Source of the DNA: an uncultured Bacilli bacterium
GTDB taxonomy: Bacteria > Bacillota_I > Bacilli_A > ML615J-28 > CAG-313
Length of the DNA: 64,000 nt
Direction of reading: 5' to 3'
Assembly (NCBI GenBank): GCA_934133195.1
Contig: CAKPAZ010000003.1
Location: 10,682-74,681 of the forward strand
The position numbers and the translations under genes are program-made. Shown in pieces: positions 3,117 to 50,949 of this stretch (the first letter of the stretch is position 1; every line of letters begins with the position of its first letter). The notes under the pieces are model-generated. The model was not told where the DNA came from. It did no database searches and saw only the letters and a list, made by a program, of their open reading frames with translations.

Positions 3117-3249
3117 GTTTTTTTCTCCTATTTTTAAATTTTAGTTTGCTAAAAGACTTAGCAATATAATTATACCTTATATATGTTTTTAGTTCTTTAG
3201 TTTTATACTAGAAAACGCTTTATTAAAAAATCTTTGCTGGTGCAATTTC

Positions 3250-32993: not shown

Positions 32994-33554
32994 ATGATTA
33001 TTGAAAAAGTAGTTGATAAAAATGAAATGATAAGAGACTTAAAATTATTTAAGAAATATTATCTTTTACCATTTAAAACTCAATCATTGATATTTCTATT
33101 TCTTATTATTTATGGTGCCATTAATTTTCTTTTTGCATATTTATTTTCAATTGAATCAAAGTTTGTAGATATAAGTATGATTATTGTTGCACTAGCAGTA
33201 CTATATTATTTAATTATAGCGGCTCGTACTTTGATAAAAACCAATAAAGATATTAAGATGCTAATAAATGATAGAACGAAAATCTACGATACTAGAGATT
33301 ATATTATTAGAAGATTTACCTTTACTGCTGATGAATTAATTATTGAAAAAGATGATGGAACTAATCAAGTAACTGATAAGTTTTTATTAGATGATCTTTA
33401 TATAGTATGGATTGATAAAAAAAGAAAAGCTTTTATCATGCAATTTAAAACTGGTAAAAATAAAAGGATACTAGCAGTTTATTCAGATAAAATAGATGAA
33501 TTAGAAACATATTTCATAAATAATAATATAAGGTATCATATAGTAAAAAGATAA
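32994..33554 (+). CDS. YcxB-like membrane protein (paralogue 2)
   Basis: 186-aa ORF with RBS AAAGGAGAAAATATTTTATG. N- and C-terminal thirds are near-identical to the upstream gene (MIIEKVVDKNEMIRD..., ...YFINNNIRYHIVK). Confidence 0.6.
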   Translation: MIIEKVVDKNEMIRDLKLFKKYYLLPFKTQSLIFLFLIIYGAINFLFAYLFSIESKFVDISMIIVALAVLYYLIIAARTLIKTNKDIKMLINDRTKIYDTRDYIIRRFTFTADELIIEKDDGTNQVTDKFLLDDLYIVWIDKKRKAFIMQFKTGKNKRILAVYSDKIDELETYFINNNIRYHIVKR

Positions 33555-33583: not shown

Positions 33584-33634
33584 AAAAAGCTCTTAAGTTA
33601 ACAAGTTCATGACTTGAAAACTTAAGGCTTTTTT
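33584..33634 (+). terminator. Terminator hairpin, copy A of a 51-bp direct repeat
   Basis: AAAAAGCTCTTAAGTTAACAAGTTCATGACTTGAAAACTTAAGGCTTTTTT. Outer stem CTTAAGTT/AACTTAAG, inner stem CAAGT/ACTTG, flanked by an A-run and a T-run. Confidence 0.8.
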
Positions 33635-33759: not shown

Positions 33760-36700
33760 ATGAAGAATAAAATTTTAAGAATCTTTACAGCTGTTTTATT
33801 GTTAACTACTATATTGGTTGTTACCCTTTCATCTTACAAGAAAAAAGATGATTATGAAGATAATAAACCAACAATACAAGAAGATTTAAATAAGTATGCA
33901 GGTAGCTATGACATACATAAAATTGTATTACAAAATACAAATGAAGTAACGGCGAAAAAATTAGCTGAAAGATTTAATGCTAAATTGAGAATTACTTCAG
34001 ATGGAAGTTATGCTACACTAACTCTTCCTGATGATATAACAATAAACGATATTGTTAAAAGTAATAAAAATAGAGATATTTTAAGCTTAATTGCGCCTGA
34101 CTATAAGGCTACTCTATCAGAACTAACTGAAGAAAGAACAACTAACTTTCCTACTGTTTCTGTAGAGGATGAATATTATGATTTACAAACATACTTAAAA
34201 TATTTAAATTTACAAGATGTTTGGAAAAATTATAAGGGCAGTGGAAAAACTATTGCTGTTATAGATACAGGTATAGATACAGACCACCCTGAATTTGCAG
34301 GCCGAATAAGCGAATATTCATATAATGCTACATTAGATAAGATAGTTAAAGACTGTGTCAATGAAGATGGCAGTTATGACTGGAGCATTATAGAAGATGA
34401 ACAAGGACATGGTACCGCTGTATCAGGTGTAATAGCTGCATCAATGAACAATGAAATTGGTATTGCTGGTATTGCTCCGGAAGCTAAAATTCTAACTATT
34501 AAAGCTGAATGTGATAAAAATGGTAATTTCAAGAACACATCAGACTTAGTATTTGGTTTATATTATGCAATTGAACAAAATGTTGATGTTGTAAACATGA
34601 GTTTTGGAAGTCCAGTCAATGTATTTTCAACTCCTGCTAAACTTGCTGTTGATAGTGACATAGTTTGTATTGCCGCTGCAGGAAATGAATCAACTGCAAA
34701 ACTTACATATCCAGCAGCAGATGAAAACGTCATAGGTGTTGGTGCTTTAGCTGATAATTCTTGGGAACTTGCATCTTACTCTAACTATGGTGATAATACT
34801 GATGTTGTTGCTCCAGGAACTGTTTATACAACATATCTAAATGGCACTTACAAAACAATGTCAGGAACAAGTTTTTCAGCTCCTATTGTTTCATCTTTAA
34901 TTGCTTTATTCTATAATCATTACATGACAACTGATTATGCAAAAGAAGTATTATATGCCGCAAGTTATGATTTAGAAAGTAAGGGAAAAGACTTTTACTT
35001 TGGATATGGTGCTGTTGATGCAAGTGCTTTAATTTTAGAAGAAAAAGGAACAGTCACATTTAACTATTTAACTGATGAAATTAATCCAACAACACAAATA
35101 TTTATCAAAAATCATCCATTACAAAATATTCCTCAACCGGAAAGATTATATTCAGTTTTTGATGGTTGGTATTATGATATTAATTGTAAAGATGAAATTG
35201 ACCTATATGTTGATGCATGGACAAGCGATTTAACTCTATATTGTAGTTGGGGTAATGAAGATGATGTTCTTCCTTATACATATACTACTTTAGATGATAA
35301 TTCTATTGAAATAACATCATACATTGGTAAGAGAAAATATATCACAATTCCTGAATATATTGATAACAAAAAAGTAACAAGCATTGGAAGATCAGCTTTC
35401 GCAAACAATACTAAATTAGTAAACGTAAATCTACCTAGTGGTTTAAAATCAATTAAAGATTACGCTTTTGATGGATGTATTAATATCAAGAATTTTGAAA
35501 TTCCATCAAGTGTTATAAGTATTGGAATTAATGCTTTTAGAAATAATATAAGTCTTTATAATATTAATTTCTTAAGTGATAGTAAACTTGAAGTAATTGA
35601 TGAATATGCATTTATAAATTGCTCATCTCTTACTAGATTTGATATTCCTAAAAATGTAAAATATAATGAAGAAAATAATTACTTCACAGGTAGTGCCTTT
35701 GTTGGATGTACTAATCTAAGACAAGTTAACGCAAGTAGAGATAGTAAATATTTAACATCAATTAATGGTGTTTTATATAACAAAGCATCTTCAACAATCA
35801 TTTTATACCCTGCTGGTTTATCAAATGAAACATATGATTTACCAACATCAGTAACTAAACTTGGTAAGTACTCATTCGCATTTTCTAATATTGATACAAT
35901 TGATTTAAAGAATGTAACAGCGATTAATTCAAATGCATTTGAATCATCTCGAATAAGAAAAATAACCTTAAGTGATAAAGTAACAACCCTTGGAAGTTTT
36001 GCTTTTATAAACTCACAAATTAACGATATTACTTTAGGACATGGCCTAAAGGCTTTAGAATCTGGTACTTTCAGACAATGTAATAACTTATATTCAATAA
36101 CTATACCAAATTCAATAGTTTATATTAGAGGTCCTATTGGAGCCTTTTTCGAAAGTTCACTTACAGACATTACTTTTGAAGAAGAATCTAAACTTTTATT
36201 AATCGATGATTATACATTTGCTAATTCTAATTTACATAAAATTGAAATTCCATCTTCAGTTGTAAAAATTGGTATGTCAGCTTTTTATGGATGTTCAAAT
36301 CTAACCGAAGTAATAATTAATAATGATTCAGCTTTGTCAGTAATTGATGAAAATGCATTTAGTTATACATCAATAAAAACTATCAACTTAACTAGTCATC
36401 TTTATACAATAGGTGCAGGTGCATTCTTTGCGACAAAACTAGAAGAAGTAACAATACCTAGTAGTGTTAATCAAATATATGGAAGTTCATTTGCTGGAAA
36501 CATATACTTAAAAAACATCTTTGTATCACCAGATAACAAGATGTTAACATCCATTGATGGAGTGGTTTACACTAAAGATTATTCAACCCTTTTCGCATAT
36601 CCAGCTGGTAAAGATTTATCATCATATACCATTGATGGAAGAGTAACTGAAATAGGTGAATATGCTTTCTATGGTGCATGCAATTTAACTAGTATTGATT

Positions 36701-39700
36701 TTCCTGAAAATCTAATAATTATAAATGATTATGCTTTTTCTTCATTATCGAATATTTCCTATTATAATTTACCTTCTAGTTTAACTTCAATTGGTGAATA
36801 TGCATTCAGTGACAATGAAAAGTTACAAGGAACTACAATCCCAGGCAATGTTGAAACTATAGGAAGATATGCCTTTAAAGGAAATTATAATTGTATAAAT
36901 ATTAATATTACAACACCATCTAAACTTGATAGATTACCATATGGAGTTTTCGCGTATACAGGAATCTATAGTTTTAGAATTCCTTCAAGTATTTCAAGTA
37001 TTTCTCAAGATGTCTTTTTAGGATGTAATAATCTAGATTCCATCACCTTTGAAGAAAATAGTAAATTACAAGCAATTAGTGCTTACACATTCTCTGGATG
37101 TGATCAGTTAAGAGTAATTACTTTTGAAAATGGTTCTAACCTAGAAACCATTGAAGCCCATGCTTTTGAAGGCTTGAAAAACTTAACAACTATTGATTTT
37201 GGTGATGCTAGTGTAAAAACAATTAGTAACTATGCTTTTAGATTTTGTACTTCATTACAAAATATTACGCTTCCTGAAACATTAACATTTATTGGACGTT
37301 ATGCCTTTTATGGTTGTAAATCCTTAACTAAATTAACTATCCCTTCATCAGTTGATTATATCGGAAGATATGCATTTAATCTTGCTTCATCATTAGATAT
37401 TTACTTTGAAAGTGATACCTTACCTTCTAATATCCAAGAATACTGGGATAAAGGTATTAATAGTTATCACATAGGAGTTAAAGAAATTAAACAAGATGAA
37501 AATTTTGAATATGCTATATTAAGAAATAATACTATATCAATTATTAAATACCTTGGAAATGAAAAAACTCTTGATTTAACAAACTTATCAATTGGAACTG
37601 TTTCATCTATTGGTGGTCATGCTTTCATGAATTCAAGTGTTGAAAGTATAGTTTTACCAGAAACATTAATAGAAATTCAATATTATGCCTTCAAAAATTC
37701 ACGTATTAAAACATTAATCATTCCTGATAGCGTTATAAGAATTGGCAATAATGCCTTTGAAGCATCAAGTATTGAAACAATTACTATTAATGAAACAAGT
37801 AATTTAAAATATATCGATCAATATGCCTTTAGTTTATGTACTTCATTAAAGAGTATATATTTACCAAGTTCTTTAATTAAGCTTGGAACTGGAGCTTTTG
37901 AAAAGAGTTCACTAGAAACTGTAAACTTTGATGAAAATATTACTATAAATGAAATCCCTGAGGATTGTTTCTTAGGAACAAAATTGGTAAATGTTGTTTT
38001 ACCTAATACTGTTACATTAATTAATAACAGTGCGTTTAGAGAAGTAGAAACATTATTAAATATAACATTTGGAACATCTAAACTTTCAATTTTATCAAAT
38101 GCCTTTTATAATTCTGGCTTACAAGAAGTATATCTTCCTGAAAACATTGAATATGTTGGTGAATATAGTTTTGTAGGTTTAAAGAATTTAAAAGAATTTA
38201 AAGTAAGTGAAAATAATAAATATTATCAACAAATTGATGGTGCGTTATATACAAAAGATGGTAAAAAAATAATAGCCTACCCAGCTGGAAAAACGGGTAG
38301 CATTACGCTTCCAACGTCTATTGAAACAATTGGATTTGGAGCTTTTGAAAACTCTAGTTTAACAAACATAGAGTTTGGTGCAGAATCTAATATTTTAAAT
38401 ATTGGATATAGAGCGTTCTTTAACGCTAAAAATTTAGTAGAAATAACAATACCTGATAGTGTTATTTCCATAGATTATTATGCTTTTGCTAATTGTGATA
38501 GATTAGAAAGTGTAAATATCAGTGAAAACTCAAAATTAGCAGGAATTTATGAAGGTGCATTCTACGGATGTATTAACTTAAAATACATCACTTTACCTGA
38601 TACATTATATGTAATTAGTGATTACTGTTTCAGTGGATGCTCATCACTTACTCGTATACCTGTTAATGAAACATCTAGCTTAATTGATATAGCTAGTTAT
38701 GCCTTTGCTTACTCAGGATTAACCGAAGTAAATATTCCACTTTCAATAGTTAATCTTGGTGCATATAGTTTCAAAGGAATAAAAGCAACAACAATAGTAA
38801 TTCCTTCTGAAAATCAAGAAATTCTCAAGATTGGTATTGGTGCCTTTGAAGAATGCGAATACCTAGAAGAAATTACATTACCATTTATTGGTGGTAGCTT
38901 TGAAGATGAAACTAATTATTGGGTAGGATATGTATTTGGTGCTGGAACATATGAAGCTAACGAAGATTATCTACCTGATTTATTAAAAAAGATTACTATC
39001 GATGAAGGTATAAAAGTAGTAAAAAACAATTCGTTTTATAATATTAAAAAATTAGAAGAAATTGATCTTCCTTATAGTTTGGAATTAATAAATGCTTATG
39101 CTTTCTATCTTTGTGAAAGTAGACATCAATTTAAAAGTTCGATATCATTGTCAGGTGATTTTCAAGATTTAAATATGAATTTGGGATCAAATCTATATGG
39201 AACATTGAATATAACGTCATTTGTCACTAGCCTAACTGTAGAAAAAATACAATTAGATTGTTATGATTTAACAAGTGTATCATTACCTGCAACAAAGAGA
39301 TTTCCATATTTTAAAAATTGTAACCGATTACAAGAAATTATTATTCCCGAAGGAACTGAAATTATAGCAGATGACACATGCAATAGTAGCATAATAAAAG
39401 AAATTACATTACCTAGTTCTTTAAAATATATATATGATGAAGCTTTTGGAGGTTCGATATATATTTATAGAATTATCAATAATAGTTCATTAGACATTAA
39501 ACTTGGAGATAGATCATGTGGATGGGCAACTACCTACGCAAATGAATTAATTGATAAAGATGGTAACAAAATAGTATCAAATGATGACTATAGTATAATT
39601 GATTATAATAACTTTAGATTTACATATAAAGATAATAAATATACTTTAGTAGACTATTTAGGATCTGAAGTAGATGTAGTATTACCTGAATTTATATATG

Positions 39701-42700
39701 GAACTAGTTACGAAATAAATTTACAATACAATAGAAAACTAGAAAAAGTTGAAATTCCTAATACTTTTACAACTATTAATGAATACGCATTTTATGATTG
39801 TTCTTCGTTAAAAACCGTTATTATTCCAGATTCAATAATCAAAATAGCATATTCTGCGTTTAGTAGCTGTGAATTATTAACAAATGTAAAACTTCCTAAT
39901 TTTCTTGAAACTATTGAATCTTTTTCTTTTTCTGGTTGCGAATCTATAACATCAATTGTAATACCAAATTCTGTTAGTCGTATAGGTAGATATGCCTTTA
40001 GAGATACATCAATTAAAGAAATAACAATTCCAAATTCAGTAAAAGAATTAGATGGTTTTCAGGATTGTAAATCGCTAGAAACAGTTAATTTACCTGATAC
40101 AGATATTATAATTTATGATGAGGCATTTAATAATTGTGAAAATTTGAAATATATTAAACTTGGCGCTAGAACTAAAATTAATGGAAGTATTATCAATAGT
40201 AATGATTGTATACTTGATTTTAGTAATAGTGAAATTTACAATTATGATAATGGAATAACATATGATGAAACATTCAAAAAAATTATATATGTCGATAAAA
40301 GAATTAAAGGTGAAGTAACTATTAAAGATGGAGTTGAATCGATTAGTAATGCTTTTTCTTATTGTAAAGATGTGACATCAATAATATTACCGGATTCAAT
40401 CACATCAATTTCAGAAAGTGCTTTTTCATATTGTACATCATTAACAACAGTTAAAATGTCAAGTAAAGTCACTAATATAGGTTCATACGCCTTTGAAAAT
40501 TGTACATCACTTGTTGATATTGAATTGCCAAATACAATTGAGACGATTCATAGTTACGCCTTTAAAGATTGTACATCATTAATAACTTTCAAAATTCCAA
40601 ATTTAGTTACAAGTATAGAAGATTCTACTTTTTATGGATGTACATCATTAATTAATATTGAAATTTCCGAAACAGTTACGAAAATAGGGCAATCTGCATT
40701 TAATCAGTGTTCTTCATTACAAAGTATCGCAATACCAACATCAGTTACAAGTATAAATGTTTTGGCATTTGCTGGTTGCAAATCATTAGTAGATATTGAA
40801 ATTCCTGATTCAGTTACAGAATTAGGATGGGGAATCTTTTTAGGATGTAATTCACTAATCTCAGTAAAATTACCTAATTCAATGGATAAAATTGGAGAAT
40901 TCTTTTTTGAAGAATGTATATCTTTAGAAACAGTGGATATTCCAGCAGCAATCACAAGCATAGAACGTTTTGCATTTAATTGTTGTATATCATTAAAAAA
41001 TATTATTTTACCAGATACAGTTAAGAGTATTGAAGATAGTGCATTTACTGATTGTATTTCGTTAAAAAATATTAAAATGTCTACAAATATTACTAATATA
41101 GGAACTTTTGCATTTAATGGCTGTGTTTCATTAGTAGACATACAAATACCAGCTGGTATTACCAGAATAGAAAAATCAAGTTTTGATTCTTGTAGTTCAT
41201 TAAAATCAATTACTTTGCCTGATACAATTAATGAGATTAGAGATTCAGCATTTAAAAATTGTACATCATTATCAAGTATAACAATTTCAAATAATATAAA
41301 TTATATTTCAAGTAATGCATTTTATGGATGTCAATTATTATTCACAGTTATCAATAATTCTGACTTAAAAGTTGGTTTCCAAAATTCAAGTGATGGTATT
41401 ATTTTTGAATATGCTAAGAAAATAATTGAAAAGGATGGAACTATAAGATATTATAACGATGAAGAACTTGGTGATTTAAAAGATACAGAGTATATTGTTA
41501 AAAATAATTTTAAATTTTCATATAATGGACTATTCTACATTTTGATAGAATATGAAGGAAATGAAACAAGTATAGTATTTCCTGAAAATATAAATGGTGA
41601 GAATTACTTCATAAATTTTTCTTCTGATTCAGTTAAAGAAATTAAATTTCCAGACAATTTAATTGAATTAAAAAGTTATTATGTGATTAACGAACAAAGG
41701 TATTCGTTTACTAATAAAATTTATGGTAATAAACTCGAAACAATTGATTTTAATAATTTAACGAAAATAACACATAATTTATTAGAAGATAATAGAAGTT
41801 TGGAAAATGTTATATGTAATAATGTTATTCGTATTGAGTATCAAGCTTTTGAATGGTGTCTTAATTTAAAAAGTGTTAAATTTTTAGAAACGCTTGAGGA
41901 AATAGAATCTAGAGCATTTTATAATTGTACATCGTTAACAACTATAACTATACCAGAATCAGTATCATATTTAGGTGGTGATTCATTTGCCCATTGTTCA
42001 AATTTAATTGATGTAATTCTTCCTAAAAATATTAAATATTTTGCATCTAGTACATTTGATGACACTCCATATATGGAAAATACTAAAGTTATAGATGGCG
42101 TTAAGCATTTAGGTAATTATATTATTGATATTGATAAAAATAAAACACAATTTTCATATGATCCGGGTTATCAAATTACAAATAATGCCTTGAATGGTTG
42201 TACTAGAATAAAAGATTTTATATTAAATAAAACTGATAGTCAATTTATGGAAAGTGGGTTAAGATATTTAACAAATTTAGAAAAATTATATATTAATATA
42301 AATTTAGAAAATCCTATTAGAAACTATCTATATTCTTTCCCTGAAACTTTTAAAACTATTATTATTTCAAGTAGCGTTACAGAAGTAGTAGATAATCAAT
42401 TTAATGGATTTAATGGTGTAATTTACGTTGATCAATATAAAGACAATGTAATGTGGGATTATGAACATCCAAATTGGAATGGAAATAATAAAGTTTATTA
42501 TAAAGGTGAATGGATTAAAGCTTCATTTTATAATAATGATGATACAGAAATTACAACAGATTTCTATTTAGTTAATCAAATAATTAGACAGCCAATAATG
42601 AAAGATTATGTTAAAGATGGAATCAATTACAAATTTATTGGTTGGGATACAGATGGTGATAATAAAGTTAATTCTTTGCCAGCAAATTCTAAAACTAATG

Positions 42701-45700
42701 TAACTGCTAAAGCAATATATGAAGAACAAATAAAGAACTACACTGTCACATTTATGGATAAAGATGGAGTAACAATTCTTGAACAATTAAGTTTACCTTA
42801 TGGTTCTACATTTACTTTAATAACACCAGCTGAAAAACAAGGTTATACTTTTGTTGGTTGGAGAGATTATCCAAAAGATTTAGTTGTAACTGAAGATTTA
42901 ATAATATATTCTGTATGGACTCATAATGGAAATCATGAATATACAATTGATGAAGTAATTGATCCAACATGTACAGAGGCTGGATATACAAAACATATTT
43001 GTTCAATATGTAATGAATATTACATATCTGATTATGTAGATAAACTTGGTCATAACTTTACTCAAGAGGACATAGTAGATCCAACATGTACAGAAGATGG
43101 TTATACAAAACATACATGTTCAGTATGTGACTATACATATTCTGATAATTATGTTAATAAACTTGGTCATACATTTGGTGATTACATAATTGATGAAGAT
43201 CCTACATGTGAAAACTCAGGTTTAAAACATAAAGAATGTCATACATGTCAACATAAAGAAGAAGAAACAATTGCCCCATTAGGTCATAATTATGAAGAAA
43301 CTGATATAGTTGAATCAACATGTACCCATGGTGGCTCAATAACATATACATGTACAAGATGTGAAGATGTTATAACATCATACACAGATTTAAAAGATCA
43401 TGAATATGTTAAAAAATATGTATCATTAACATGGTTAGAAAGACTATTAAAATTCTTAATTAAGATATTTTATGGAATAGAAAATGATAATGCATACTAT
43501 TTTGAATGTGTTAATTGTAAACACATAATGACAGCGAATGAAAATCAAGCAAATTCATCTATTCAAGGCACTTGTTCACATGAAACCTGTGAATGGGTAG
43601 TAGTATTTACAAGTTGTGATGATAATGGATTAAAGACATATAAATGTACAAATTGTGATGAAGTACTTGAAATTGAATTATTAGATCCAATAGGTCATGA
43701 TTTAGTACATCATGAAAAGTTAGATGCTACTTGTGAAGAAGCAGGACATGAAGCATATGATACATGTACAAGATGTGATTATACAACATTCAAAGAAATC
43801 CAAGCAGCAGGTCATACTTCAAGTGATTGGATTATTGACAAAAAATCTAACTGTACTGAAGATGGTTCAAAACATAAAGAATGTACAGTTTGTCATAAAG
43901 TACTTAAAACAGAAGTTATAGATAAACTAGGCCATAATCTTGTTCATCATGAAAAACTAAATCCTACTTGTGAAGAAGCAGGACATGAAGCATATGATAC
44001 ATGTACAAGATGTGACTACACAACATTTAAAGAGATTCCTTCAACAGGTCATACAACGAGTGATTGGATCATTGATAAAGAATCTAACTGTACAGAAGAT
44101 GGAACTAAACATAAAGAATGTACAGTATGTCATAAAGTTTTAGAAACAGAAGTTATAGAAAAACTTGGACACGATTTAGTACATCACGAAAAGTTAGATC
44201 CTACTTGTGAAGAAGTAGGCCATGAAGCATATGATACATGTACAAGATGTGACTACACAACATTCAAAGAAATCCCATCCACAGGTCATACTTCAAGTGA
44301 TTGGATTATTGACAAAGAATCAAATTGTACAGAAGATGGCTCAAAACATAAAGAATGTACAGTTTGTCATAAGATTTTAGAAACAGAAGTTATAGAAAAA
44401 CTAGGTCATAATCTTGTTCATCATGAAAAGTTAGATCCCACTTGTGAAGAAGCAGGACATGAAGCATATGACACATGTACAAGATGTGACTACACAACCT
44501 TCAAAGAAATCCCAGCAACCGGACATAGATCAAGTGATTGGATTATTGACAAAGAATCAAATTGTACAGAAGATGGCTCAAAACATAAAGAATGTACAGT
44601 CTGTCATAAAGTACTTGAAACAGAAACAATAGATATGTTAGGCCATGATCTTGTTCACCATGAAAAGTTAGATTCTACTTGTGAAGAAGTTGGTCATGAA
44701 GAGTATGATACTTGTACAAGATGTGATTATACAACCTTCAAAGAAATCCCAGCAACTGGTCACACATCAAGTGAATGGATTATTGATAAAGAATCAAATT
44801 GTACAGAAGATGGCTCAAAACATAAAGAATGTACAGTATGTCATAAAGTTTTAGAGACAGAAGTTATTGATAAACTTGGACACGATTTAGTACACCATGA
44901 AAAGTTAGATCCAACATGTGAAGAGAATGGCCATGAAGCATATGATACTTGTACAAGATGTGATTATACAACCTTCAAAGAAATTCCTTCAACTGGTCAT
45001 ACTTCAAGTGATTGGATTATAGATCAAAAATCAAATTGTACTGAAAATGGTTCAAAACACAAAGAATGTACAGTATGTCATAAAGTACTTGAAACAGAAA
45101 TCATAAGTAAATTAGGACATGATTTAGTACATCATGAAAAACAAGATCCTACTTGTGAAGAAGCAGGCCATGAAGCATATGATACATGTACAAGATGTGA
45201 TTATACAACCTTCAAAGAAATATCTGCAACTGGTCATACATCAAGTGAATGGATTATTGACAAAGAATCTAACTGTACAGAAGATGGATCAAAACACAAA
45301 GAATGTACAGTATGTCATAAAGTACTTGAAACAGAAGTTATTGATAAACTTGGTCATAATCTTGTTCATCATGAAAAGTTAGATCCTACTTGTGAAGAAG
45401 CAGGCCATGAAGCATATGATACTTGTACAAGATGTGATTATACAACCTTCAAAGAAATCCCAGCAACCGGACATACTTCAAGTGATTGGATTATCGATCA
45501 AGATTCTAACTGTACAGAAACTGGTTCAAAACATAAAGAATGTACAGTATGTCATAAAGCACTTGAAACAGAAGTTATAGAAAAACTAGGACATGATTTA
45601 GTACATCATGAAAAACTAGATCCAACTTGTGAAGAAGTAGGCCATGAAGCATACGATACATGTACAAGATGTGATTATACAACTTTCATAGAAATTCCTT

Positions 45701-46164
45701 CAACAGGTCATACAACAAGTGAATGGATAGTGGATGTTGAGGCTACTTGTACTGAAACTGGTTCAAAACACAAAGAATGTACAGTTTGTCATAAAGTTTT
45801 AGAGACAGAAATTCTTGAAAAACTAGGACATAATCTTGTTCATCATGAAAAGTTAGATGCTACTTGTGAAGAAGTAGGACATGAAGCATATGACACATGT
45901 ACAAGATGTGATTATACAACATTTAAAGAAATCCCATCCACAGGACATACAACAAGTGAATGGATAGTAGATGTTGAGCCTACTCATAAAAAGGAAGGTT
46001 CAAAGCATAAAGAATGTACAACCTGTCATAAAGTTTTAGAGACTGAAACAATCAGTAAGATTTCTAGTAAATGCTGTAACATTAGTTCAAATTCAGTAGT
46101 AATATTTACTCTTATATCAATTTGTAGTTTAATGACTTTTGTTATAAGACGTAAAAAATATTAG
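33760..46164 (+). CDS. Giant (4134 aa) surface protein: signal/anchor, S8 subtilase, Flg_new, four BspA-type LRR cassettes, 2 Flg_new, Cys/His-rich repeat array, C-terminal TM anchor
   Basis: Single uninterrupted 12.4-kb ORF with a strong RBS. The S8 triad motifs are AVIDTGID, HGTAVSG and SGTSFSAP. Dozens of 22-24-aa units follow the pattern IP.SV..IG..AF..C..L. Ten 79-aa repeats follow, and the terminal VVIFTLISICSLMTFVIRRKKY is hydrophobic with a basic end. Confidence 0.9.
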   Translation: MKNKILRIFTAVLLLTTILVVTLSSYKKKDDYEDNKPTIQEDLNKYAGSYDIHKIVLQNTNEVTAKKLAERFNAKLRITSDGSYATLTLPDDITINDIVKSNKNRDILSLIAPDYKATLSELTEERTTNFPTVSVEDEYYDLQTYLKYLNLQDVWKNYKGSGKTIAVIDTGIDTDHPEFAGRISEYSYNATLDKIVKDCVNEDGSYDWSIIEDEQGHGTAVSGVIAASMNNEIGIAGIAPEAKILTIKAECDKNGNFKNTSDLVFGLYYAIEQNVDVVNMSFGSPVNVFSTPAKLAVDSDIVCIAAAGNESTAKLTYPAADENVIGVGALADNSWELASYSNYGDNTDVVAPGTVYTTYLNGTYKTMSGTSFSAPIVSSLIALFYNHYMTTDYAKEVLYAASYDLESKGKDFYFGYGAVDASALILEEKGTVTFNYLTDEINPTTQIFIKNHPLQNIPQPERLYSVFDGWYYDINCKDEIDLYVDAWTSDLTLYCSWGNEDDVLPYTYTTLDDNSIEITSYIGKRKYITIPEYIDNKKVTSIGRSAFANNTKLVNVNLPSGLKSIKDYAFDGCINIKNFEIPSSVISIGINAFRNNISLYNINFLSDSKLEVIDEYAFINCSSLTRFDIPKNVKYNEENNYFTGSAFVGCTNLRQVNASRDSKYLTSINGVLYNKASSTIILYPAGLSNETYDLPTSVTKLGKYSFAFSNIDTIDLKNVTAINSNAFESSRIRKITLSDKVTTLGSFAFINSQINDITLGHGLKALESGTFRQCNNLYSITIPNSIVYIRGPIGAFFESSLTDITFEEESKLLLIDDYTFANSNLHKIEIPSSVVKIGMSAFYGCSNLTEVIINNDSALSVIDENAFSYTSIKTINLTSHLYTIGAGAFFATKLEEVTIPSSVNQIYGSSFAGNIYLKNIFVSPDNKMLTSIDGVVYTKDYSTLFAYPAGKDLSSYTIDGRVTEIGEYAFYGACNLTSIDFPENLIIINDYAFSSLSNISYYNLPSSLTSIGEYAFSDNEKLQGTTIPGNVETIGRYAFKGNYNCININITTPSKLDRLPYGVFAYTGIYSFRIPSSISSISQDVFLGCNNLDSITFEENSKLQAISAYTFSGCDQLRVITFENGSNLETIEAHAFEGLKNLTTIDFGDASVKTISNYAFRFCTSLQNITLPETLTFIGRYAFYGCKSLTKLTIPSSVDYIGRYAFNLASSLDIYFESDTLPSNIQEYWDKGINSYHIGVKEIKQDENFEYAILRNNTISIIKYLGNEKTLDLTNLSIGTVSSIGGHAFMNSSVESIVLPETLIEIQYYAFKNSRIKTLIIPDSVIRIGNNAFEASSIETITINETSNLKYIDQYAFSLCTSLKSIYLPSSLIKLGTGAFEKSSLETVNFDENITINEIPEDCFLGTKLVNVVLPNTVTLINNSAFREVETLLNITFGTSKLSILSNAFYNSGLQEVYLPENIEYVGEYSFVGLKNLKEFKVSENNKYYQQIDGALYTKDGKKIIAYPAGKTGSITLPTSIETIGFGAFENSSLTNIEFGAESNILNIGYRAFFNAKNLVEITIPDSVISIDYYAFANCDRLESVNISENSKLAGIYEGAFYGCINLKYITLPDTLYVISDYCFSGCSSLTRIPVNETSSLIDIASYAFAYSGLTEVNIPLSIVNLGAYSFKGIKATTIVIPSENQEILKIGIGAFEECEYLEEITLPFIGGSFEDETNYWVGYVFGAGTYEANEDYLPDLLKKITIDEGIKVVKNNSFYNIKKLEEIDLPYSLELINAYAFYLCESRHQFKSSISLSGDFQDLNMNLGSNLYGTLNITSFVTSLTVEKIQLDCYDLTSVSLPATKRFPYFKNCNRLQEIIIPEGTEIIADDTCNSSIIKEITLPSSLKYIYDEAFGGSIYIYRIINNSSLDIKLGDRSCGWATTYANELIDKDGNKIVSNDDYSIIDYNNFRFTYKDNKYTLVDYLGSEVDVVLPEFIYGTSYEINLQYNRKLEKVEIPNTFTTINEYAFYDCSSLKTVIIPDSIIKIAYSAFSSCELLTNVKLPNFLETIESFSFSGCESITSIVIPNSVSRIGRYAFRDTSIKEITIPNSVKELDGFQDCKSLETVNLPDTDIIIYDEAFNNCENLKYIKLGARTKINGSIINSNDCILDFSNSEIYNYDNGITYDETFKKIIYVDKRIKGEVTIKDGVESISNAFSYCKDVTSIILPDSITSISESAFSYCTSLTTVKMSSKVTNIGSYAFENCTSLVDIELPNTIETIHSYAFKDCTSLITFKIPNLVTSIEDSTFYGCTSLINIEISETVTKIGQSAFNQCSSLQSIAIPTSVTSINVLAFAGCKSLVDIEIPDSVTELGWGIFLGCNSLISVKLPNSMDKIGEFFFEECISLETVDIPAAITSIERFAFNCCISLKNIILPDTVKSIEDSAFTDCISLKNIKMSTNITNIGTFAFNGCVSLVDIQIPAGITRIEKSSFDSCSSLKSITLPDTINEIRDSAFKNCTSLSSITISNNINYISSNAFYGCQLLFTVINNSDLKVGFQNSSDGIIFEYAKKIIEKDGTIRYYNDEELGDLKDTEYIVKNNFKFSYNGLFYILIEYEGNETSIVFPENINGENYFINFSSDSVKEIKFPDNLIELKSYYVINEQRYSFTNKIYGNKLETIDFNNLTKITHNLLEDNRSLENVICNNVIRIEYQAFEWCLNLKSVKFLETLEEIESRAFYNCTSLTTITIPESVSYLGGDSFAHCSNLIDVILPKNIKYFASSTFDDTPYMENTKVIDGVKHLGNYIIDIDKNKTQFSYDPGYQITNNALNGCTRIKDFILNKTDSQFMESGLRYLTNLEKLYININLENPIRNYLYSFPETFKTIIISSSVTEVVDNQFNGFNGVIYVDQYKDNVMWDYEHPNWNGNNKVYYKGEWIKASFYNNDDTEITTDFYLVNQIIRQPIMKDYVKDGINYKFIGWDTDGDNKVNSLPANSKTNVTAKAIYEEQIKNYTVTFMDKDGVTILEQLSLPYGSTFTLITPAEKQGYTFVGWRDYPKDLVVTEDLIIYSVWTHNGNHEYTIDEVIDPTCTEAGYTKHICSICNEYYISDYVDKLGHNFTQEDIVDPTCTEDGYTKHTCSVCDYTYSDNYVNKLGHTFGDYIIDEDPTCENSGLKHKECHTCQHKEEETIAPLGHNYEETDIVESTCTHGGSITYTCTRCEDVITSYTDLKDHEYVKKYVSLTWLERLLKFLIKIFYGIENDNAYYFECVNCKHIMTANENQANSSIQGTCSHETCEWVVVFTSCDDNGLKTYKCTNCDEVLEIELLDPIGHDLVHHEKLDATCEEAGHEAYDTCTRCDYTTFKEIQAAGHTSSDWIIDKKSNCTEDGSKHKECTVCHKVLKTEVIDKLGHNLVHHEKLNPTCEEAGHEAYDTCTRCDYTTFKEIPSTGHTTSDWIIDKESNCTEDGTKHKECTVCHKVLETEVIEKLGHDLVHHEKLDPTCEEVGHEAYDTCTRCDYTTFKEIPSTGHTSSDWIIDKESNCTEDGSKHKECTVCHKILETEVIEKLGHNLVHHEKLDPTCEEAGHEAYDTCTRCDYTTFKEIPATGHRSSDWIIDKESNCTEDGSKHKECTVCHKVLETETIDMLGHDLVHHEKLDSTCEEVGHEEYDTCTRCDYTTFKEIPATGHTSSEWIIDKESNCTEDGSKHKECTVCHKVLETEVIDKLGHDLVHHEKLDPTCEENGHEAYDTCTRCDYTTFKEIPSTGHTSSDWIIDQKSNCTENGSKHKECTVCHKVLETEIISKLGHDLVHHEKQDPTCEEAGHEAYDTCTRCDYTTFKEISATGHTSSEWIIDKESNCTEDGSKHKECTVCHKVLETEVIDKLGHNLVHHEKLDPTCEEAGHEAYDTCTRCDYTTFKEIPATGHTSSDWIIDQDSNCTETGSKHKECTVCHKALETEVIEKLGHDLVHHEKLDPTCEEVGHEAYDTCTRCDYTTFIEIPSTGHTTSEWIVDVEATCTETGSKHKECTVCHKVLETEILEKLGHNLVHHEKLDATCEEVGHEAYDTCTRCDYTTFKEIPSTGHTTSEWIVDVEPTHKKEGSKHKECTTCHKVLETETISKISSKCCNISSNSVVIFTLISICSLMTFVIRRKKY
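34200..35040 (+). other. Peptidase S8 (subtilisin-like) catalytic domain of the giant protein
   Basis: Asp codon 34264-34266, His 34408-34410 and Ser 34870-34872, in D-H-S order. Preceded by an I9-propeptide-like segment. Confidence 0.8.
40387..41335 (+). repeat. Highly regular 69-bp (23-aa) LRR tandem array, about 14 units
   Basis: Units such as LPDSITSISESAFSYCTSLTTVKM and SSKVTNIGSYAFENCTSLVDIEL. The DNA motif TGTACATCATTA recurs. Confidence 0.8.
43690..46059 (+). repeat. Ten tandem 237-bp (79-aa) Cys/His-rich coding repeats
   Basis: GGTCAT at 43693 and GGCCAT at 43930 give an offset of 237, and 10 x 237 = 2370 nt ends exactly at 46059. The unit is LGH(D/N)LVHHEKLDPTCEE.GHEAYDTCTRCDYTTFKEIP.TGHTSS.WIIDKESNCTEDGSKHKECTVCHKVLETEVI.K. 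Confidence 0.95.
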
Positions 46165-46170: not shown

Positions 46171-46223
46171 AAAAAAGCCCTTAAGTTAACAAGTTCATGA
46201 CTTGAAAACTTAAGGGTTTTTTT
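46171..46223. terminator. Bidirectional terminator, copy B of the 51-bp direct repeat
   Basis: AAAAAGCCCTTAAGTTAACAAGTTCATGACTTGAAAACTTAAGGGTTTTTTT is identical to copy A at 49 of 51 aligned positions. It serves the giant gene (+) and nrdG (-). Confidence 0.85.
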
Positions 46224-46917
46224 AATAACCTCTTAGATATACATTTGTTATAAATTGTTCTAAGTATTCTTTATATTCGATAGCAGTTTCTTTTTTTACT
46301 TCATGAAAGCCTTTAGAAAGAGAAGAATCTCTTTCAACAAAATGTTGTAGATAGTAAGTTTTGGTTCCGTTAATTAAATCTTTGATTTCTTTAATACTAT
46401 CAAAATCATGAAATTCTTTAACAAGGGTAGTTCTAAATTCATGATGAATATTAGATGTTTCTAAAATGTTAATGGTTTCTTTGATTTTTTCTAGAGGAAC
46501 TTTATTTATTCCTGCTACCATACTATAGTTAGAAGTACCACTCTTGATGTCCATCGCAATGTAATCAACTAAGTGATTGTCGATTAATTCTTTGACCATT
46601 TTAGGATTGGTACCATTGGTATCAAGTTTTATGACAAAACCTAAATCTTTAATTTTCTTTATATAATAAGGAAGTGATGCCATTAGGGTTGGTTCCCCAC
46701 CAGTGATGCAGACGGCTTCAATTATTTTTTTTCTACTAGTAAGGTAATCAATGATTTCGTTAAAATCAAGGGGTTTTTCGACATCATTATTTACAAGAGG
46801 GCCATTGTGACACCATGGACATCTGAAGTTGCAACCACTAGTAAATAGTGTACATGTAACATATCCTTCAAAATCTACAAGCGATATTTTTTCAATTCCA
46901 ACAAATCCATCAATCAT
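46222..46917 (-). CDS. nrdG: Anaerobic ribonucleotide reductase activating protein (radical SAM)
   Basis: GCNFRCPWCHN CxxxCxxC motif and CITGGEPT; 231 aa. ATGA overlap with ispG upstream. Confidence 0.85.
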   Translation of the reverse strand: MIDGFVGIEKISLVDFEGYVTCTLFTSGCNFRCPWCHNGPLVNNDVEKPLDFNEIIDYLTSRKKIIEAVCITGGEPTLMASLPYYIKKIKDLGFVIKLDTNGTNPKMVKELIDNHLVDYIAMDIKSGTSNYSMVAGINKVPLEKIKETINILETSNIHHEFRTTLVKEFHDFDSIKEIKDLINGTKTYYLQHFVERDSSLSKGFHEVKKETAIEYKEYLEQFITNVYLRGY

Positions 46918-47969
46918 TTTGTATTTATCATTTTCAAGATTTCTTCCTTTAAACAGTCGACAATCTTATCTTCAGGAATCTTCTTAATGATTTCTCCTTT
47001 CTTGAATAATACGCCACATCCATTTCCTCCTGCAATTCCAAGATCAGCTTCTCTTGCTTCCCCAGGACCATTGACTACACATCCCATAATGGCGATGGTT
47101 AAGTTTTTGTTAATTGATTCACAAAAACTTTCAATTTCTTTTACGACGGGTTCCATATTATAGTTGGTTCTACCACAAGTAGGACAAACAATCAATCTTG
47201 GTTTTTGGTAAAGATGGCACATGGAAAGAATTTCTTTACATACAGGAATTTCATTTAAAGGTGATCCATGTAAAGATACTCTAATAGTGTTACCAATACC
47301 TTCAAAAAGAAGTGTACCAAGAACATAACTAGAAGCAATGGTTCCACTAAATGTGGTTCCCGATTCGGTAAGTCCAATATGGATAGGATATGGGTAACGG
47401 GCTGCTAAAGCTCTATTTACTTCAATAGTTGATTCAATGTCAGTGGCTTTAATGGATAAAACTAAATCTTTAAAATCAAAACTCTCCATAAGTTTTACTG
47501 CTCGGTCCATACTTTCTAAAAGTGCAAGTGTGGTAACATGATGATATTTTTCAAGTAAATCTTTTTCAAGAGATCCACTATTAATTCCAATACGAATAGG
47601 AACATGATACTCTTTACATTTATCTACTATTTGTTTAACTTTATCATCTGAACCGATGTTTCCAGGATTAATTCTAATTTTATCAGCTCCACTTGTTATA
47701 GCAAGAATTGCGAGTTTATAATCAAAGTGGATGTCCGCAACAATTGGTATTCTAACTTGTTTTTTTATTTCTTTGATCGCAAGCGCATCTTCCTCATCAA
47801 GGACTGCTACTCTAACGATTTCACATCCTAGAAGTGTTAAATCATTAATTTGTTTAACCGTCTTTTCAATGTCTTTAGTTTTGGTGTTAGTCATTGATTG
47901 AATGACAACTTTATTAGATCCTCCAATTATGACATTTCCAACTTTTACTTTTATGGTATCAGATCTCAT
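46914..47969 (-). CDS. ispG: 4-hydroxy-3-methylbut-2-en-1-yl diphosphate synthase (IspG/GcpE)
   Basis: Typical IspG sequence (VIQSMTNT, VRVAV, IPIVADIHFDYKLA, RINPGNIG, C-terminal CPTCGRT...GCVVNGPGE). The TGtTATAAT promoter complement lies at 47994-48002. Confidence 0.9.
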   Translation of the reverse strand: MRSDTIKVKVGNVIIGGSNKVVIQSMTNTKTKDIEKTVKQINDLTLLGCEIVRVAVLDEEDALAIKEIKKQVRIPIVADIHFDYKLAILAITSGADKIRINPGNIGSDDKVKQIVDKCKEYHVPIRIGINSGSLEKDLLEKYHHVTTLALLESMDRAVKLMESFDFKDLVLSIKATDIESTIEVNRALAARYPYPIHIGLTESGTTFSGTIASSYVLGTLLFEGIGNTIRVSLHGSPLNEIPVCKEILSMCHLYQKPRLIVCPTCGRTNYNMEPVVKEIESFCESINKNLTIAIMGCVVNGPGEAREADLGIAGGNGCGVLFKKGEIIKKIPEDKIVDCLKEEILKMINTK

Positions 47970-48009
47970 AATATCACATCCTTAAGTATAGTAATTATAA
48001 CATAAAATA

Positions 48010-48034
48010 AAGAAAAGAGCCCTTTGAAGGCTCT
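48010..48034 (-). terminator. Terminator of the 48033..48593 gene
   Basis: On the minus strand AGAGCC-TTCAAAG-GGCTCT followed by TTTTC; the stop codon lies inside the stem. Confidence 0.65.
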
Positions 48035-48593
48035 ATTTATTACTTGAAGTAGTCTTTTTAGTAGTAGTTTTCTTAGTTGTTTTTTTCTCATCAGGATTTG
48101 GTAAAACTGATGTAGTTGCATTTTCAACTACCACTTTTTTCTTTTTAGTCTTTCTTTGTGGAGAACGAATGTGACCACGTCTTAAAAAGTTATAGATGGT
48201 GCTACGACTTGCTTGTACACCATATTGAGCTTGGACGATACGTGCAAACTCTGAAAAGTTAGTGCCACGATATTCACGGCGATAAAGCTTACAAACAAAT
48301 GTTGAAATTTCAGTATCATATGTATTGTATGGCTTGTAGTTTTTATTTTTATGGATTACTCCATCACGGCCTTCTTCAATTACTTGACGTTTTAAGTTAC
48401 GAACTTGACGAGTAGTGATACCTAGTTTTTTAGCAGCTTGAGTACCATTAATCTCACCTTCGAGTAATTTAGTGATAACTCTTAGTTTTTTACGTTCAGT
48501 TTTAGAAAGCTTTTTCTTAGGTTTTTCTTCGACTAAAGTGACAGTCCCATCAGGGTTTACTACTTCAACCATCTTTGGTTTTACTATTGGCAT
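48033..48593 (-). CDS. HTH protein resembling the N-terminal DNA-binding region of ISNCY-type transposases, with Lys/Thr-rich tail; no DDE domain
   Basis: 186-aa ORF. ITKLLEGEINGTQAAKKLGITTRQVRNLKRQVIEEGRDGVIHKNKNYKPYN...SRSTIYNFLRRGHIRSPQRK matches, from memory, the HTH plus linker pattern of ISNCY/IS1202-group transposase N-termini. It ends in KKTTKKTTTKKTTSSNK. Confidence 0.55.
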   Translation of the reverse strand: MPIVKPKMVEVVNPDGTVTLVEEKPKKKLSKTERKKLRVITKLLEGEINGTQAAKKLGITTRQVRNLKRQVIEEGRDGVIHKNKNYKPYNTYDTEISTFVCKLYRREYRGTNFSEFARIVQAQYGVQASRSTIYNFLRRGHIRSPQRKTKKKKVVVENATTSVLPNPDEKKTTKKTTTKKTTSSNK

Positions 48594-48620
48594 AATATCA
48601 GTCCCTTTCTAACTATAGTT

Positions 48621-48649
48621 ATTATACCAAATTTAGACAATCATTTCAA
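48621..48649 (-). promoter_or_regulatory. Promoter of the 48033..48593 gene
   Basis: On the minus strand TTGAAA, 17-nt spacer, TGgTATAAT (complement of 48644-48649 and 48621-48626). Confidence 0.6.
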
Positions 48650-48750
48650 GTGTTTTGATAGGAAATATTTGTGTGAATACGTTTTTATAATAAAAACAAA
48701 AGATAAAATTTAAACAAAAATATTTATAAAAAAATTAAAAAATATTGTAA

Positions 48751-48778
48751 AAATAAAACCTTTATTTGTTATAAAGGT
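48751..48778 (-). terminator. Orphan terminator-like hairpin (minus-strand polarity)
   Basis: Stem ACCTTTAT (48758-48765) / ATAAAGGT (48771-48778). Only the minus strand has a U-run (TTTATTTT) after it. Confidence 0.45.
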
Positions 48779-49038
48779 GAACAGATAAAAAATAATGGTT
48801 CTAATGTTTTCTATTTAATATTTAATAAATACCAAACTGACTACCTAACTTTTTAGGAAAAACGTAATGTAGTCCTCCTCTATTTCCTTTCGATTAAAAA
48901 TAGAAAATAGCAAAAGTTAAACATTTTTAATCACACGTTTTAATGTTTAATAAAATCCTCTCACTAACCACAAAAAACTCACTTTCTTTTATGAATCATT
49001 AAATTTTATCGTTTATATACATTCACTCACAGTAAAAG

Positions 49039-49066
49039 GCATTATTCTAATTGAATAATGCTTTTT
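49039..49066 (+). terminator. Orphan terminator hairpin (plus-strand polarity) with no upstream CDS
   Basis: Stem GCATTATTC (49039-49047) / GAATAATGC (49053-49061) followed by TTTTTATTTT. Confidence 0.5.
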
Positions 49067-49115
49067 ATTTTATAAATAAACCTTTTAATGATATAATAAG
49101 TAAGTAGTATGGGAG

Positions 49116-49790
49116 GTGTACACATTGACCTACCAAGATTTAGAAGTCGTTTATGAAACTAATCACTTAATTGTAGTTGTAAAACCGGCAGGGATTTTAT
49201 CCCAAAAAGATGTAACTAATGATCTTGATATGATGACTCTTGTTAAAGAATATTTAAAGAATAAATATCATAAACCAGGAGATGTCTTTTTAGGCTTAGT
49301 TCATCGTCTTGACCGTATGACATCAGGATTGATGGTATTTGGTAAAACTTCAAAAGGGGCTAGTCGCCTTAGTGAACAAATCAGAAACCATGAATTCATT
49401 AAAAAGTATTTTACCGTCGTAGAAAATAAAGTAACAAAAGATGGAACGCTAACTAACAAAATGTCATATGATGAAAAAAACAAAAAAGCTTACCTTGATG
49501 AAAATGGTAAACTCGCGGTATTACACTATAAAGTCATAAAAAATGAATTTGGAGCCTTAGGCTTAAAGAACAATACTTTACTTGAAGTATTACTTGAAAC
49601 GGGAAGACATCACCAAATTAGATTACAGATGTCAGCTTTTTCTCACCCACTTTTAGGTGATACCTTATATGGAAGTAAAGTAAAATGTAAAATCTTTTTA
49701 CATGCTTACTACTTAAGCTTTAAAGACCCGGTAACTAAAGAAAAGCTAGAATTTATTAAATACCCTACATGGTATGAAAGGAGAAACTAA
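49116..49790 (+). CDS. RluA-family pseudouridine synthase
   Basis: VVVKPAG and [16 protein letters not shown] catalytic motifs and [10 protein letters not shown]. The start is uncertain (GTG 49116 or TTG 49125 after GGGAGG). TGaTATAAT -10 at 49089-49097. Confidence 0.85.
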
Positions 49791-49791
49791 G

Positions 49792-50949
49792 ATGAAAGAA
49801 TTTAAAGAAAGAAGAATATTTACCTCAGAATCGGTAACTGAAGGTCATCCTGATAAAGTATGCGACCAAATCGCTGATGCAATTCTTGATGATTTACTAT
49901 CAAAAGATAAACATGCGAAAGTAGCATGTGAAGTTGTCGCAACCACTGGTTTAGTCCTTGTTATGGGTGAAGTAACAACTAATAGCTATGTTGATGTTCA
50001 AAAAATTGTCCGTGAGACTGTTGATAGAATAGGCTACAACCGTGGTAAGTTTGGCTTTGACGCTGAAAACCTAAGTGTGCTTGTTGCTTTAGATGAACAA
50101 TCACCTGACATTGCGATGGGAGTAAGAGATGGTGAAGGTGCTGGTGACCAAGGTATTATGTTTGGTTATGCTTGTGATGAAACAGAAGAATTAATGCCTC
50201 TTCCTATTATGCTTGCACATAAACTTGCGAAGAGATTAAGTGATGTAAGAAAGACTAACCATCCAAAAGAACTTCGTCCTGATGGTAAAACTCAAGTATC
50301 AGTAGAATATGATGAAGAAGGAAATCCAGCAAGAATTGATGCTATCCTTGTTTCTACCCAACATGATGAAGATGTAACCATCGATTGGTTAAGAAATGTA
50401 ATTACCGAAGAAGTAATCAAACCAGTAGTACCTGCTCACTTAATGGATGAAAATACTAAAATTTATGTTAATCCAACTGGTCGTTTTGTAATTGGTGGAC
50501 CAAAGGGAGATTCTGGTTTAACTGGTCGTAAGATTATTGTTGACACCTATGGAGGTTATGCTCCTCATGGTGGTGGTTCCTTTAGTGGTAAGGACCCAAC
50601 TAAAGTTGACAGAAGTGCAAGTTATGCTTTAAGATGGATTGCTAAAAACATGGTTGCAGCAGGATTTGCTAAAAAAATTCAAATCCAAGTTTCTTATGGA
50701 ATTGGTATGGCTGAACCTATCTCCATCTGTGTTGACACATTTGGAACTAGTGATTACTCTGAACATGAATTAATTAAAATAATTCGTAAACATTTTGATT
50801 TAACCCCAAAAGGTATTATTGAAACTCTTGACCTACGTCGTCCTATCTACGAACAAACAGCCGCATACGGTCATTTTGGACGTAACGACTTAGACTTACC
50901 TTGGGAAAGACTAAATAAAGTAGAAGAATTAAAAAAGGAGATTAAATAA
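49792..50949 (+). CDS. metK: S-adenosylmethionine synthetase
   Basis: [33 protein letters not shown] and [16 protein letters not shown] motifs. RBS AAAGGAGAAACTAAGATG. The track start at 49774 overlaps the upstream gene. Confidence 0.95.

Follow-up and report, generated by a model that had tools for sequence, protein, structure and literature searches.

The window analyzed here is a stretch of 64,000 nucleotides (nt) from an uncultured Bacilli bacterium (contig CAKPAZ010000003.1), and it carries a giant gene whose product of 4134 amino acids (aa) ends in a long array of repeats rich in Cys and His, followed by a transmembrane (TM) segment. An earlier note, prepared from the letters of this DNA, had drawn attention to the array as ten in-frame repeats of 237 nt. 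The repeats and their likely role are the subject of this report. The features of the gene, all on the + strand, are as follows.

33760 to 46164 (+): giant open reading frame (ORF), 4134 aa, 12.4 kb (ORF list, translation and Pfam)
34237 to 35010 (+): Peptidase_S8 domain (subtilase, PF00082), aa 160-417 (Pfam 1.4e-49; motifs DTGID, HGTAVSG and GTSFSAP in the translation)
35350 to 42600 (+), approximate boundaries: BspA-type leucine-rich-repeat (LRR) region (Pfam LRR_5 and LRR_8; limits from the translation)
42739 to 42864 (+): best-scoring Listeria-Bacteroides (Flg_new / InlB B-repeat) stretch, aa 2994-3035 (Pfam; the InlB match is weak)
42928 to 43689 (+): five diverged single Cys/His modules, aa 3057-3310 (regular-expression and hidden-Markov-model matches; a Tandem Repeats Finder row of period 117 at 42961-43171)
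43690 to 46059 (+): array of 10 x 237 nt, equal to 10 x 79 aa or 20 alternating A and B modules
45943 to 46059 (+): terminal B module, in unit 10, with the first ligand Cys changed to His (TGT to CAT, codon 55, EPTHKKEG context)
46060 to 46161 (+): C-terminal tail ISSKCCNISSNS, then TM helix VVIFTLISICSLMTFVI, then RRKKY; a membrane anchor without LPXTG (translation)

A ten-unit array in a gene of 12.4 kb

Read from its N-terminus, the giant protein presents a signal-like hydrophobic segment that may serve as signal or anchor, a subtilase, the BspA-type LRR region, Flg_new repeats, the stretch of Cys/His modules and the C-terminal TM anchor. The frame stays intact through 12.4 kb of 31%-GC DNA, and an identical protein is present in public collections (P0121). 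The protease assignment follows from the presence of both the Pfam domain and the Asp-His-Ser triad motifs of family S8. Pfam additionally reports LRR_5 in 17 stretches (E=0), LRR_8 in 4, and Flg_new (8e-14), whose best-scoring stretch sits directly upstream of the Cys/His modules; it reports neither cohesin nor dockerin in this protein. The succession of signal-like segment, S8 and LRR head, array, and TM helix with RRKKY points to a surface location, as read from the sequence.

The array itself is highly regular, as evident by a Tandem Repeats Finder row that spans 43636-46034 with a period of 237, 10.1 copies, 85% matches and 0% indels. All ten units lie in frame 0 of the ORF at 33760-46164, in the register 43690-46059 that the earlier note had given. 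LGH(D/N)LVHHEKLDPTCEEAGHEAYDTCTRCDYTTF... marks the A modules, and GHTSSDWIIDKESNCTEDGSKHKECTVCHKVLETE... the B modules. Six Cys (codons 15, 26, 29, 55, 65 and 68) and seven conserved His (codons 3, 7, 8, 20, 42, 62 and 69) recur in every unit, a set that the note had described as almost invariant and from which the sole departure is Cys55 of unit 10, replaced by His. Mean pairwise identity among the units is 0.84 for DNA and ~0.87 for protein, and any two units differ by 10-25%. As had been proposed, conservation is at the protein level and is accompanied by many third-position differences: variable sites at codon positions 1, 2 and 3 number 26, 16 and 55 of 79, respectively.

Two observations concern the DNA within or next to the array. 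A hydrophobic, amphipathic-looking insert (YVKKYVSLTWLERLLKFLIKIFYGIEN...) splits the diverged modules at about 43402-43585 (aa about 3215-3275), and no relatives of this insert were found in the metagenome scan. Inside the array lies an out-of-frame ORF of 82 aa (45134-45382, +), which in all likelihood arose by chance in the repeats.

Nei-Gojobori estimates among the units give a mean dN of 0.085, a mean dS of 0.83 and a pS of 0.47. The pooled omega (dN/dS) is 0.113 (bootstrap 95% confidence interval 0.068-0.173), and it is 0.13 once the Cys, GH and Gly columns are dropped. These values are far from an omega near 1, and they bear out the view expressed in the earlier note that strong purifying selection acts on an old array and that no recent slippage expansion produced it. 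At conserved residues, synonymous codon mismatch has climbed to 75% of the ceiling that the codon usage of the gene itself would predict, and the unit duplications must therefore be old.

The note had also described two alternating DNA flavors, in the order D,N,D,N,D,D,D,N,D,N, and had taken them as traces of an older two-unit super-repeat of 474 bp. At the amino-acid level this order is correct. At the DNA level, unit 5 is a hybrid (GAT CTT GTT), and the flavors are thus D-TTA-GTA in five units, N-CTT-GTT in four and mixed in one. They are restricted to a single 9-nt patch (codons 4-6), and the choice of D or N recurs in A-type modules of unrelated proteins (e.g. LGHNLVHH in P0007). Identity between units shows no alternation with lag. 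When codons 4-6 are left out, 11 of the 40 informative sites agree with the N/D split, which comes 115th among the 210 splits that are possible; an odd/even split comes 202nd of 252. Outside the patch, the unit sorts neither by flavor nor by odd or even position, and the super-repeat is therefore rejected. A clean tree of units, by which the two-unit duplication was to be judged, is rejected as well: the four-gamete test fails for 62% of informative site pairs, with incompatibility growing over distance (PHI-like, p=0.007), and the units are recombinant mosaics. The true two-part structure sits within each unit, in the form of two diverged modules of ~39 aa, A and B.

The age of the units extends beyond this gene. 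A different gene in another metagenome-assembled genome (MAG; L001) carries an N-terminal array of such units after a lipobox. Nucleotide identity between its units and those of the window is 0.834, compared with 0.841 for the window units among themselves, and nearest neighbors interleave between both genes. Because similarity across genes equals similarity within the array, the unit lineages are older than either array. The same interleaving rejects concerted evolution within the array. Adjacent window units have exact tracts of 23-71 nt in common.

A widespread module with conserved Cys and His

The 79-aa unit consists of modules of 40 and 39 aa that follow the pattern GH-x(9-11)-(P/S/A)(T/N)C-x3-G-x(5-6)-C-x2-C-x(9-11). 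No Pfam or NCBIfam model matches the module, even at E<=10. The best sub-cut-off Pfam matches have E 0.035-6, which does not reach the gathering threshold, and classical C2H2 and other Pfam zinc fingers were rejected on this basis; zinc fingers in the PDB score E 0.07-0.8. The sole PDB sequence match is the construct 9qa6 of the Thomasclavelia ramosa M64 IgA protease (IgAse/ThomasA, UniProt Q9AES2), with E-values of 1.8e-12 by phmmer and 1.1e-14 by profile. The alignment to 9qa6_A spans residues 844-981 and 1100-1142, which correspond to ZBD1 and ZBD2 (CTD2 and CTD4). For these domains, Cys/His zinc sites have been predicted at subdomain interfaces, and a new periscope fold or a possible novel metal-binding fold has been proposed (PMC12415215; PMC12237041). 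The window modules share with the IgAse domains significant sequence similarity, a conserved ligand set per subdomain, and all-beta sheets that lack a solved homologue and are predicted to be arranged end to end.

AlphaFold2 modeling of two units with a 39-sequence alignment yields a pLDDT of 96.6 and a pTM of 0.61, with strands only and with the CxxC at a hairpin turn. The end-to-end arrangement of the sheets is suggested by this pTM together with the strand topology. A Foldseek search of the PDB with the two-unit model returned nothing at E<=1e-3 (best match E 0.028, TM-score 0.18).

Proteins that bear such modules are numerous. A word-indexed search finds at least 4565 of them, and an exhaustive profile search of 1.84 billion cluster representatives gives 75,792 matches at E<=1e-3, 49,470 at E<=1e-10 and 19,637 at E<=1e-30. 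The proteins reach about 7,500 aa, with up to about 39 matched stretches each, and the modules are fused to cohesin, dockerin, SLH, Big_2, LRR_5, Flg_new, S8, CAP and other partners. Matches in genomes come from gut and rumen Bacillota, namely uncultured Bacilli or 'Mollicutes', Anaeroplasmataceae, Acutalibacteraceae, Oscillospiraceae and Ruminococcus. The 'Bacilli bacterium' MAG lineage of the window occurs in many human-gut samples. By sequence comparison, the array is an unusually regular member of a very large, uncurated domain family, lately proposed as a zinc-stabilized periscope fold. The bead type first drew attention in 2025, when it was described from one protein as a candidate for a new zinc fold. 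It can be regarded as a 'dark' domain, which is very widespread and forms arrays of dozens of modules, yet has neither a Pfam or NCBIfam model nor a solved structure.

Across this family, where relatives are 29-75% identical, the invariant columns are exactly the His of the opening GH, the single Cys of the PTC loop (C1), a Gly, and the two Cys of the CxxC (C2 and C3). Among the columns invariant in 39 diverse fragments are H3, C15, G19, H42, G59, C65 and C68. Of 2257 modules, 96% have Cys at C1; variant modules carry His, Glu or Asp there instead. The six Cys and two linker His of a unit match a count of 2 x 4 ligands.

The ends of arrays depart from this pattern in two ways. C1 is not Cys in 22.6% of last-in-array modules compared with 6.6% of internal ones (3.4-fold; odds ratio 4.2, p 1e-49). 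Conversely, first-in-array modules more often have an additional Cys or His among the 5 aa that precede the linker His (17% compared with 3.3%; odds ratio 6.1, p 2e-53). L001 and P0047, for example, have CKH there, and the lipoprotein encoded by the window ORF at 17531-20197 has CSNGH. The loss of C1 at array ends is a mechanistic edge effect and not simple decay. Unit 10 of the giant protein, in which the earlier note had recognized an altered segment as expected at an array edge, is an instance. The alteration can now be described more precisely as a Cys-to-His change at the first ligand position, which requires two nucleotide changes and belongs to a recurrent EPTH..EG variant found in other proteins.

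Arrays are also placed consistently with respect to membrane anchors. Where the anchor is a C-terminal TM helix, a median of 100 aa separates the end of the last module from the C-terminus. Where it is an N-terminal lipobox, the median distance from the N-terminus to the start of the first module is 76 aa, compared with 500 aa for proteins with a plain signal. Because arrays adjoin the anchor at whichever end the anchor lies, a spacer role is favored.

The closest relatives of the window array indicate that copy number of this unit type varies. Alleles of a related cohesin protein, known from short-read assemblies, carry 4 to 11 of the 79-aa units and are 929-1562 aa long; their N-termini are 94-100% identical, as are their C-termini (98-100%) in all but the shortest allele. 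Two loci of this protein with 99.4-99.9% identical flanks differ only within the array (721 nt versus 370 nt). Together with the 23-71-nt tracts between neighboring units, these differences make plausible the earlier suggestion that stalk length can change by copy number. In a related gut bacterium (L080 1-6092 and L081 1-5741), the gene for an S8 peptidase with a dockerin (1515 aa) is followed, with an overlap of 4 nt, by one for a cohesin-stalk-TM protein, and the stalk of the latter is made of 79-aa units like those of the window array. From its sequence this pair resembles a system for protease display through cohesin and dockerin, here in a Mollicutes-like Bacilli lineage, and it is a two-component version of the fused window protein.

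More distant architectural homologues (P0178, P0190, P0220 and P0157) occur in other taxa at 31-40% identity. Different blocks, of two or three modules, make up their arrays, and a similar TM helix with basic tail ends three of the four. The metagenome scan yielded no orthologue of the giant gene, only generic modules; the listing of homologous proteins contained nothing above about 1,900 aa, and P0121 itself was missing from it, so that its silence on orthologues is not evidence.

The C-terminus of the giant protein itself shows a further resemblance. The tail of P0001 resembles it (CN..TM..RKK), and the giant protein, P0001 and P0012 each carry a Cys-Asn motif (KCCNIS, MNCNLS or GCNGT) a few residues before a TM helix and RKK tail, without LPXTG. 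This shared motif may be an undescribed sorting or anchoring signal. A search of NCBIfam for a C-terminal sorting signal gave only a sub-threshold Loki-CTERM match (E 0.14).

The array as a candidate membrane-proximal stalk

We consider it likely, with a probability of roughly 0.65, that the array serves as a membrane-proximal, zinc-stapled stalk of a giant surface protease/LRR protein. Each 79-aa unit would fold as two small three-stranded beta modules, and a single tetrahedral zinc ion would probably staple each module, end to end, to the next. We propose as its ligands the lone Cys in the PTC loop of module i-1, the linker His that opens module i ('GH') and the CxxC knuckle of module i at the hairpin turn. 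The 20 array modules and the five diverged ones could then form a stiff rod which, at a crude estimate of ~3 nm per module, would measure some tens of nanometers overall and would project the subtilase and BspA-type LRR head away from the C-terminal TM anchor. Duplication of a two-module block produced the array long ago, and its synonymous sites have since come close to saturation while nearly all residues were constrained. The remaining 23-71-nt identity tracts permit occasional unequal recombination, as in the related cohesin protein.

The staple model derives from strand topology, which in the predicted structure places the linker His near the CxxC knuckle of its own module and C1 at the far end, near the next linker. 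From this topology one zinc per junction is predicted, bound by C1(i-1), His(i), C2(i) and C3(i). Both edge statistics, the loss of C1 at array ends and the extra Cys or His at array starts, fit one zinc per junction, and the Cys55-to-His change of unit 10 would fall exactly on the position that is dispensable if ligands are shared in this manner.

Several considerations weigh against this interpretation. The ligand geometry is drawn from modeled strand topology and family statistics rather than from distances. The ZBDs are unresolved in 9QA6, where the model stops at residue 876 (PMC12237041), and zinc in the bead fold is a prediction in the literature also (PMC12237041; PMC12415215). The regular expression used for module detection can misregister, which may account for many of the 'T' calls at C1. 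The further conserved His of the A modules (HH) and of the B modules (KH and CH) fall outside the explanation, and the N-terminal hydrophobic segment of the giant protein might be an uncleaved anchor. Furthermore, the 87% amino-acid conservation within the array is far above the need of the fold, given that only Cys, His and Gly are fixed family-wide. Because of this excess, the beads may also bind something.

If carried further, the last point leads to a reading in which the beads are chiefly multivalent binders of host mucin, glycan, immunoglobulin or other cells and the stalk geometry is secondary. Such a reading would account for the omega that stays at 0.13 without the ligand columns, and for LVHHEK, YDTCTRCDYTTF and KHKECTVCHK, which are invariant in all ten units and in the units of L001, more constraint than a spacer seems to need; additional functions are left open by the authors of PMC12415215. 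However, no ligand is known, LRRs are already present in the head, and a location adjacent to the anchor at either terminus suits a spacer better than a distal binding head. We therefore judge binding as the chief role to be unlikely. An extracellular spacer could otherwise be stabilized by metal-free, EGF-like beads held by disulfide bonds, as is often the case for extracellular Cys-rich repeats, and the even number of six Cys per unit would suit such bonds. This arrangement becomes improbable on considering that each module has three Cys and an invariant His, that C1 is exchanged for His, Glu or Asp in variants, that the host is a strict-anaerobe-type gut bacterium encoding NrdD, and that disulfides are neither seen nor predicted in IgAse (PMC12237041).

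Metal might instead be the purpose of the array rather than its glue. Every 79 aa contain about 7 His and 6 Cys, and conserved His are left over once four ligands are counted for each site. With the His-rich HHEK patches, 20 or more sites could act mainly as a surface reservoir or scavenger of zinc or other metals. We regard this as highly improbable, since zinc in Cys3His structural sites is too tightly bound to exchange, the gene neighborhood shows no linkage to a transporter, and the domain is fused to very diverse heads. We assign the least credence to the possibility that the ten-copy array is an artefact of short-read assembly, produced by collapse, by expansion or as a chimera of strains. 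The sequence evidently comes from a metagenome assembly, and a contig from another sequencing run (L086), 100% identical to window 46186-50172, breaks 22 nt past the stop codon of the giant gene. This break is, however, located outside the array, in one of two 51-nt repeats that flank the gene, and the frame is intact throughout. The longest exact repeat within the array is 71 nt and no 77-mer occurs twice, so an assembler with k >= 77 passes the array unambiguously. Given also the 10-25% divergence of the units, collapse or expansion, a concern already raised in the earlier note, is unlikely as judged from repeat lengths in the assembled sequence.

As a candidate zinc-stapled stalk, the array can be compared with several known systems. 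IgAse, with homologous modules of the form ...GH-x-(E/D)W(I/V)VD...G(S/T)KHKECTVCH(K/R)VLET..., likewise places Cys/His-rich, all-beta modules, predicted to be end to end, between a catalytic head and a C-terminal anchor. In IgAse there are 3 + 2 non-identical subdomains, mostly His2Cys2, which are split by other domains and followed by a sortase motif, whereas the window protein has 25 modules, mostly Cys3His, of which 20 are in near-perfect A-B tandem; its anchor is a plain TM helix and its head a subtilase with LRRs. In both proteins the module is without an experimental structure. Small-angle X-ray scattering on the homologous CTD2 of IgAse is in line with an anisotropic rod (PMC12415215), and so is the secondary structure that AlphaFold2 predicts for the two window units.

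Periscope Proteins (SasG/Aap G5-E, Rib and SHIRT repeats) are also single-chain, surface-anchored tandems of small beta domains that form an anisotropic stalk from anchor to head. From its sequence the window protein appears to be such a surface-attached monomer with a functional head distal to the anchor, and repeat number varies in a close relative of its array, the cohesin protein. The fold is distinct, however, and probably metal-stapled, and the length variation observed is that of the related protein. Moreover, classical Periscope repeats are nearly identical in DNA, whereas the coding sequences of the window units are not (~84% nt identity, pS 0.47, with protein identity at 0.87), their synonymous sites being near saturation and free of concerted evolution.

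Zinc ribbons and knuckles (TFIIS C-terminal domain) and C2H2 zinc fingers share with the module a CxxC knuckle, located at the turn of a beta-hairpin, and additional Cys/His ligands, and one IgAse subdomain distantly resembles TFIIS (PMC12237041). The window modules differ in giving no significant sequence or fold match, in their extracellular context, and in that consecutive modules appear to have ligands in common rather than each containing its own set. Finally, cellulosome-like cohesin-dockerin display is approached by the closest array-bearing relatives, which put a cohesin on a stalk of 79-aa units next to the gene for a dockerin S8 peptidase and so follow a similar principle of keeping a protease on a stalk; in the window protein the protease is covalently fused to the stalk.

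More speculatively, and doubtful as a general statement, such arrays might constitute a distinct and widespread class of bacterial stalk with rigidity from shared zinc and metal-dependent extension. The repeats of this class would be nearly identical as protein yet synonymously scrambled and stable in length, the opposite of DNA-identical Periscope repeats. Extra invariant His/Glu patches (HHEK, GHEAYD and KHKEC) could provide further metal or ligand sites. The near-perfect 20-module array offers an ideal construct for solving the bead fold and for probing both the zinc-staple model and a possible control of rigidity by zinc. It also demonstrates that a long, protein-identical stalk can persist without DNA identity, which bears on how repeat length in bacterial surface proteins is stabilized or varied.

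The strain-variable segment and its neighbors

The giant gene resides in a 12.6-kb segment that is absent as a whole from six contigs of other strains, in which flanks 92-97% identical to those of the window join about 33635 (or about 32965) straight to 46165. The segment is bounded by direct repeats located by alignment and folding.

33584 to 33634 (+): terminator-like hairpin of 51 nt, upstream copy, left direct repeat of the strain-variable segment
46172 to 46222 (+): downstream copy of the 51-nt hairpin, 49/51 identical (-26.5 kcal/mol, z -7.8)

The downstream copy appears from its sequence to be a bidirectional terminator between the giant gene and a convergent radical-SAM gene; scans for promoter and terminator consensus near gene ends were uninformative. 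Rfam and tRNA scans of the window revealed one tRNA-Arg only.

The window holds a cluster of genes for giant surface proteins amid housekeeping genes. ORFs at 3303-6374 (+) and 6513-14651 (+) encode surface proteins of 1023 and 2712 aa with Amidase_2 (N-acetylmuramoyl-L-alanine amidase), Flg_new, Big_2 and HL_N-beta domains. The ORF at 17531-20197 (+) encodes a second module protein, which has a lipobox (ITGC), two to three Cys/His modules starting from CSNGH... and a Cthe_2159 carbohydrate-binding domain; its modules likewise adjoin the anchor. Just ahead of the giant gene are two tandem paralogous small ORFs (32387-32938 and 32994-33554, +) of 183 and 186 aa, with about 80-84% nt identity and no Pfam match, which are present as one, two or fragmented copies in other strains.

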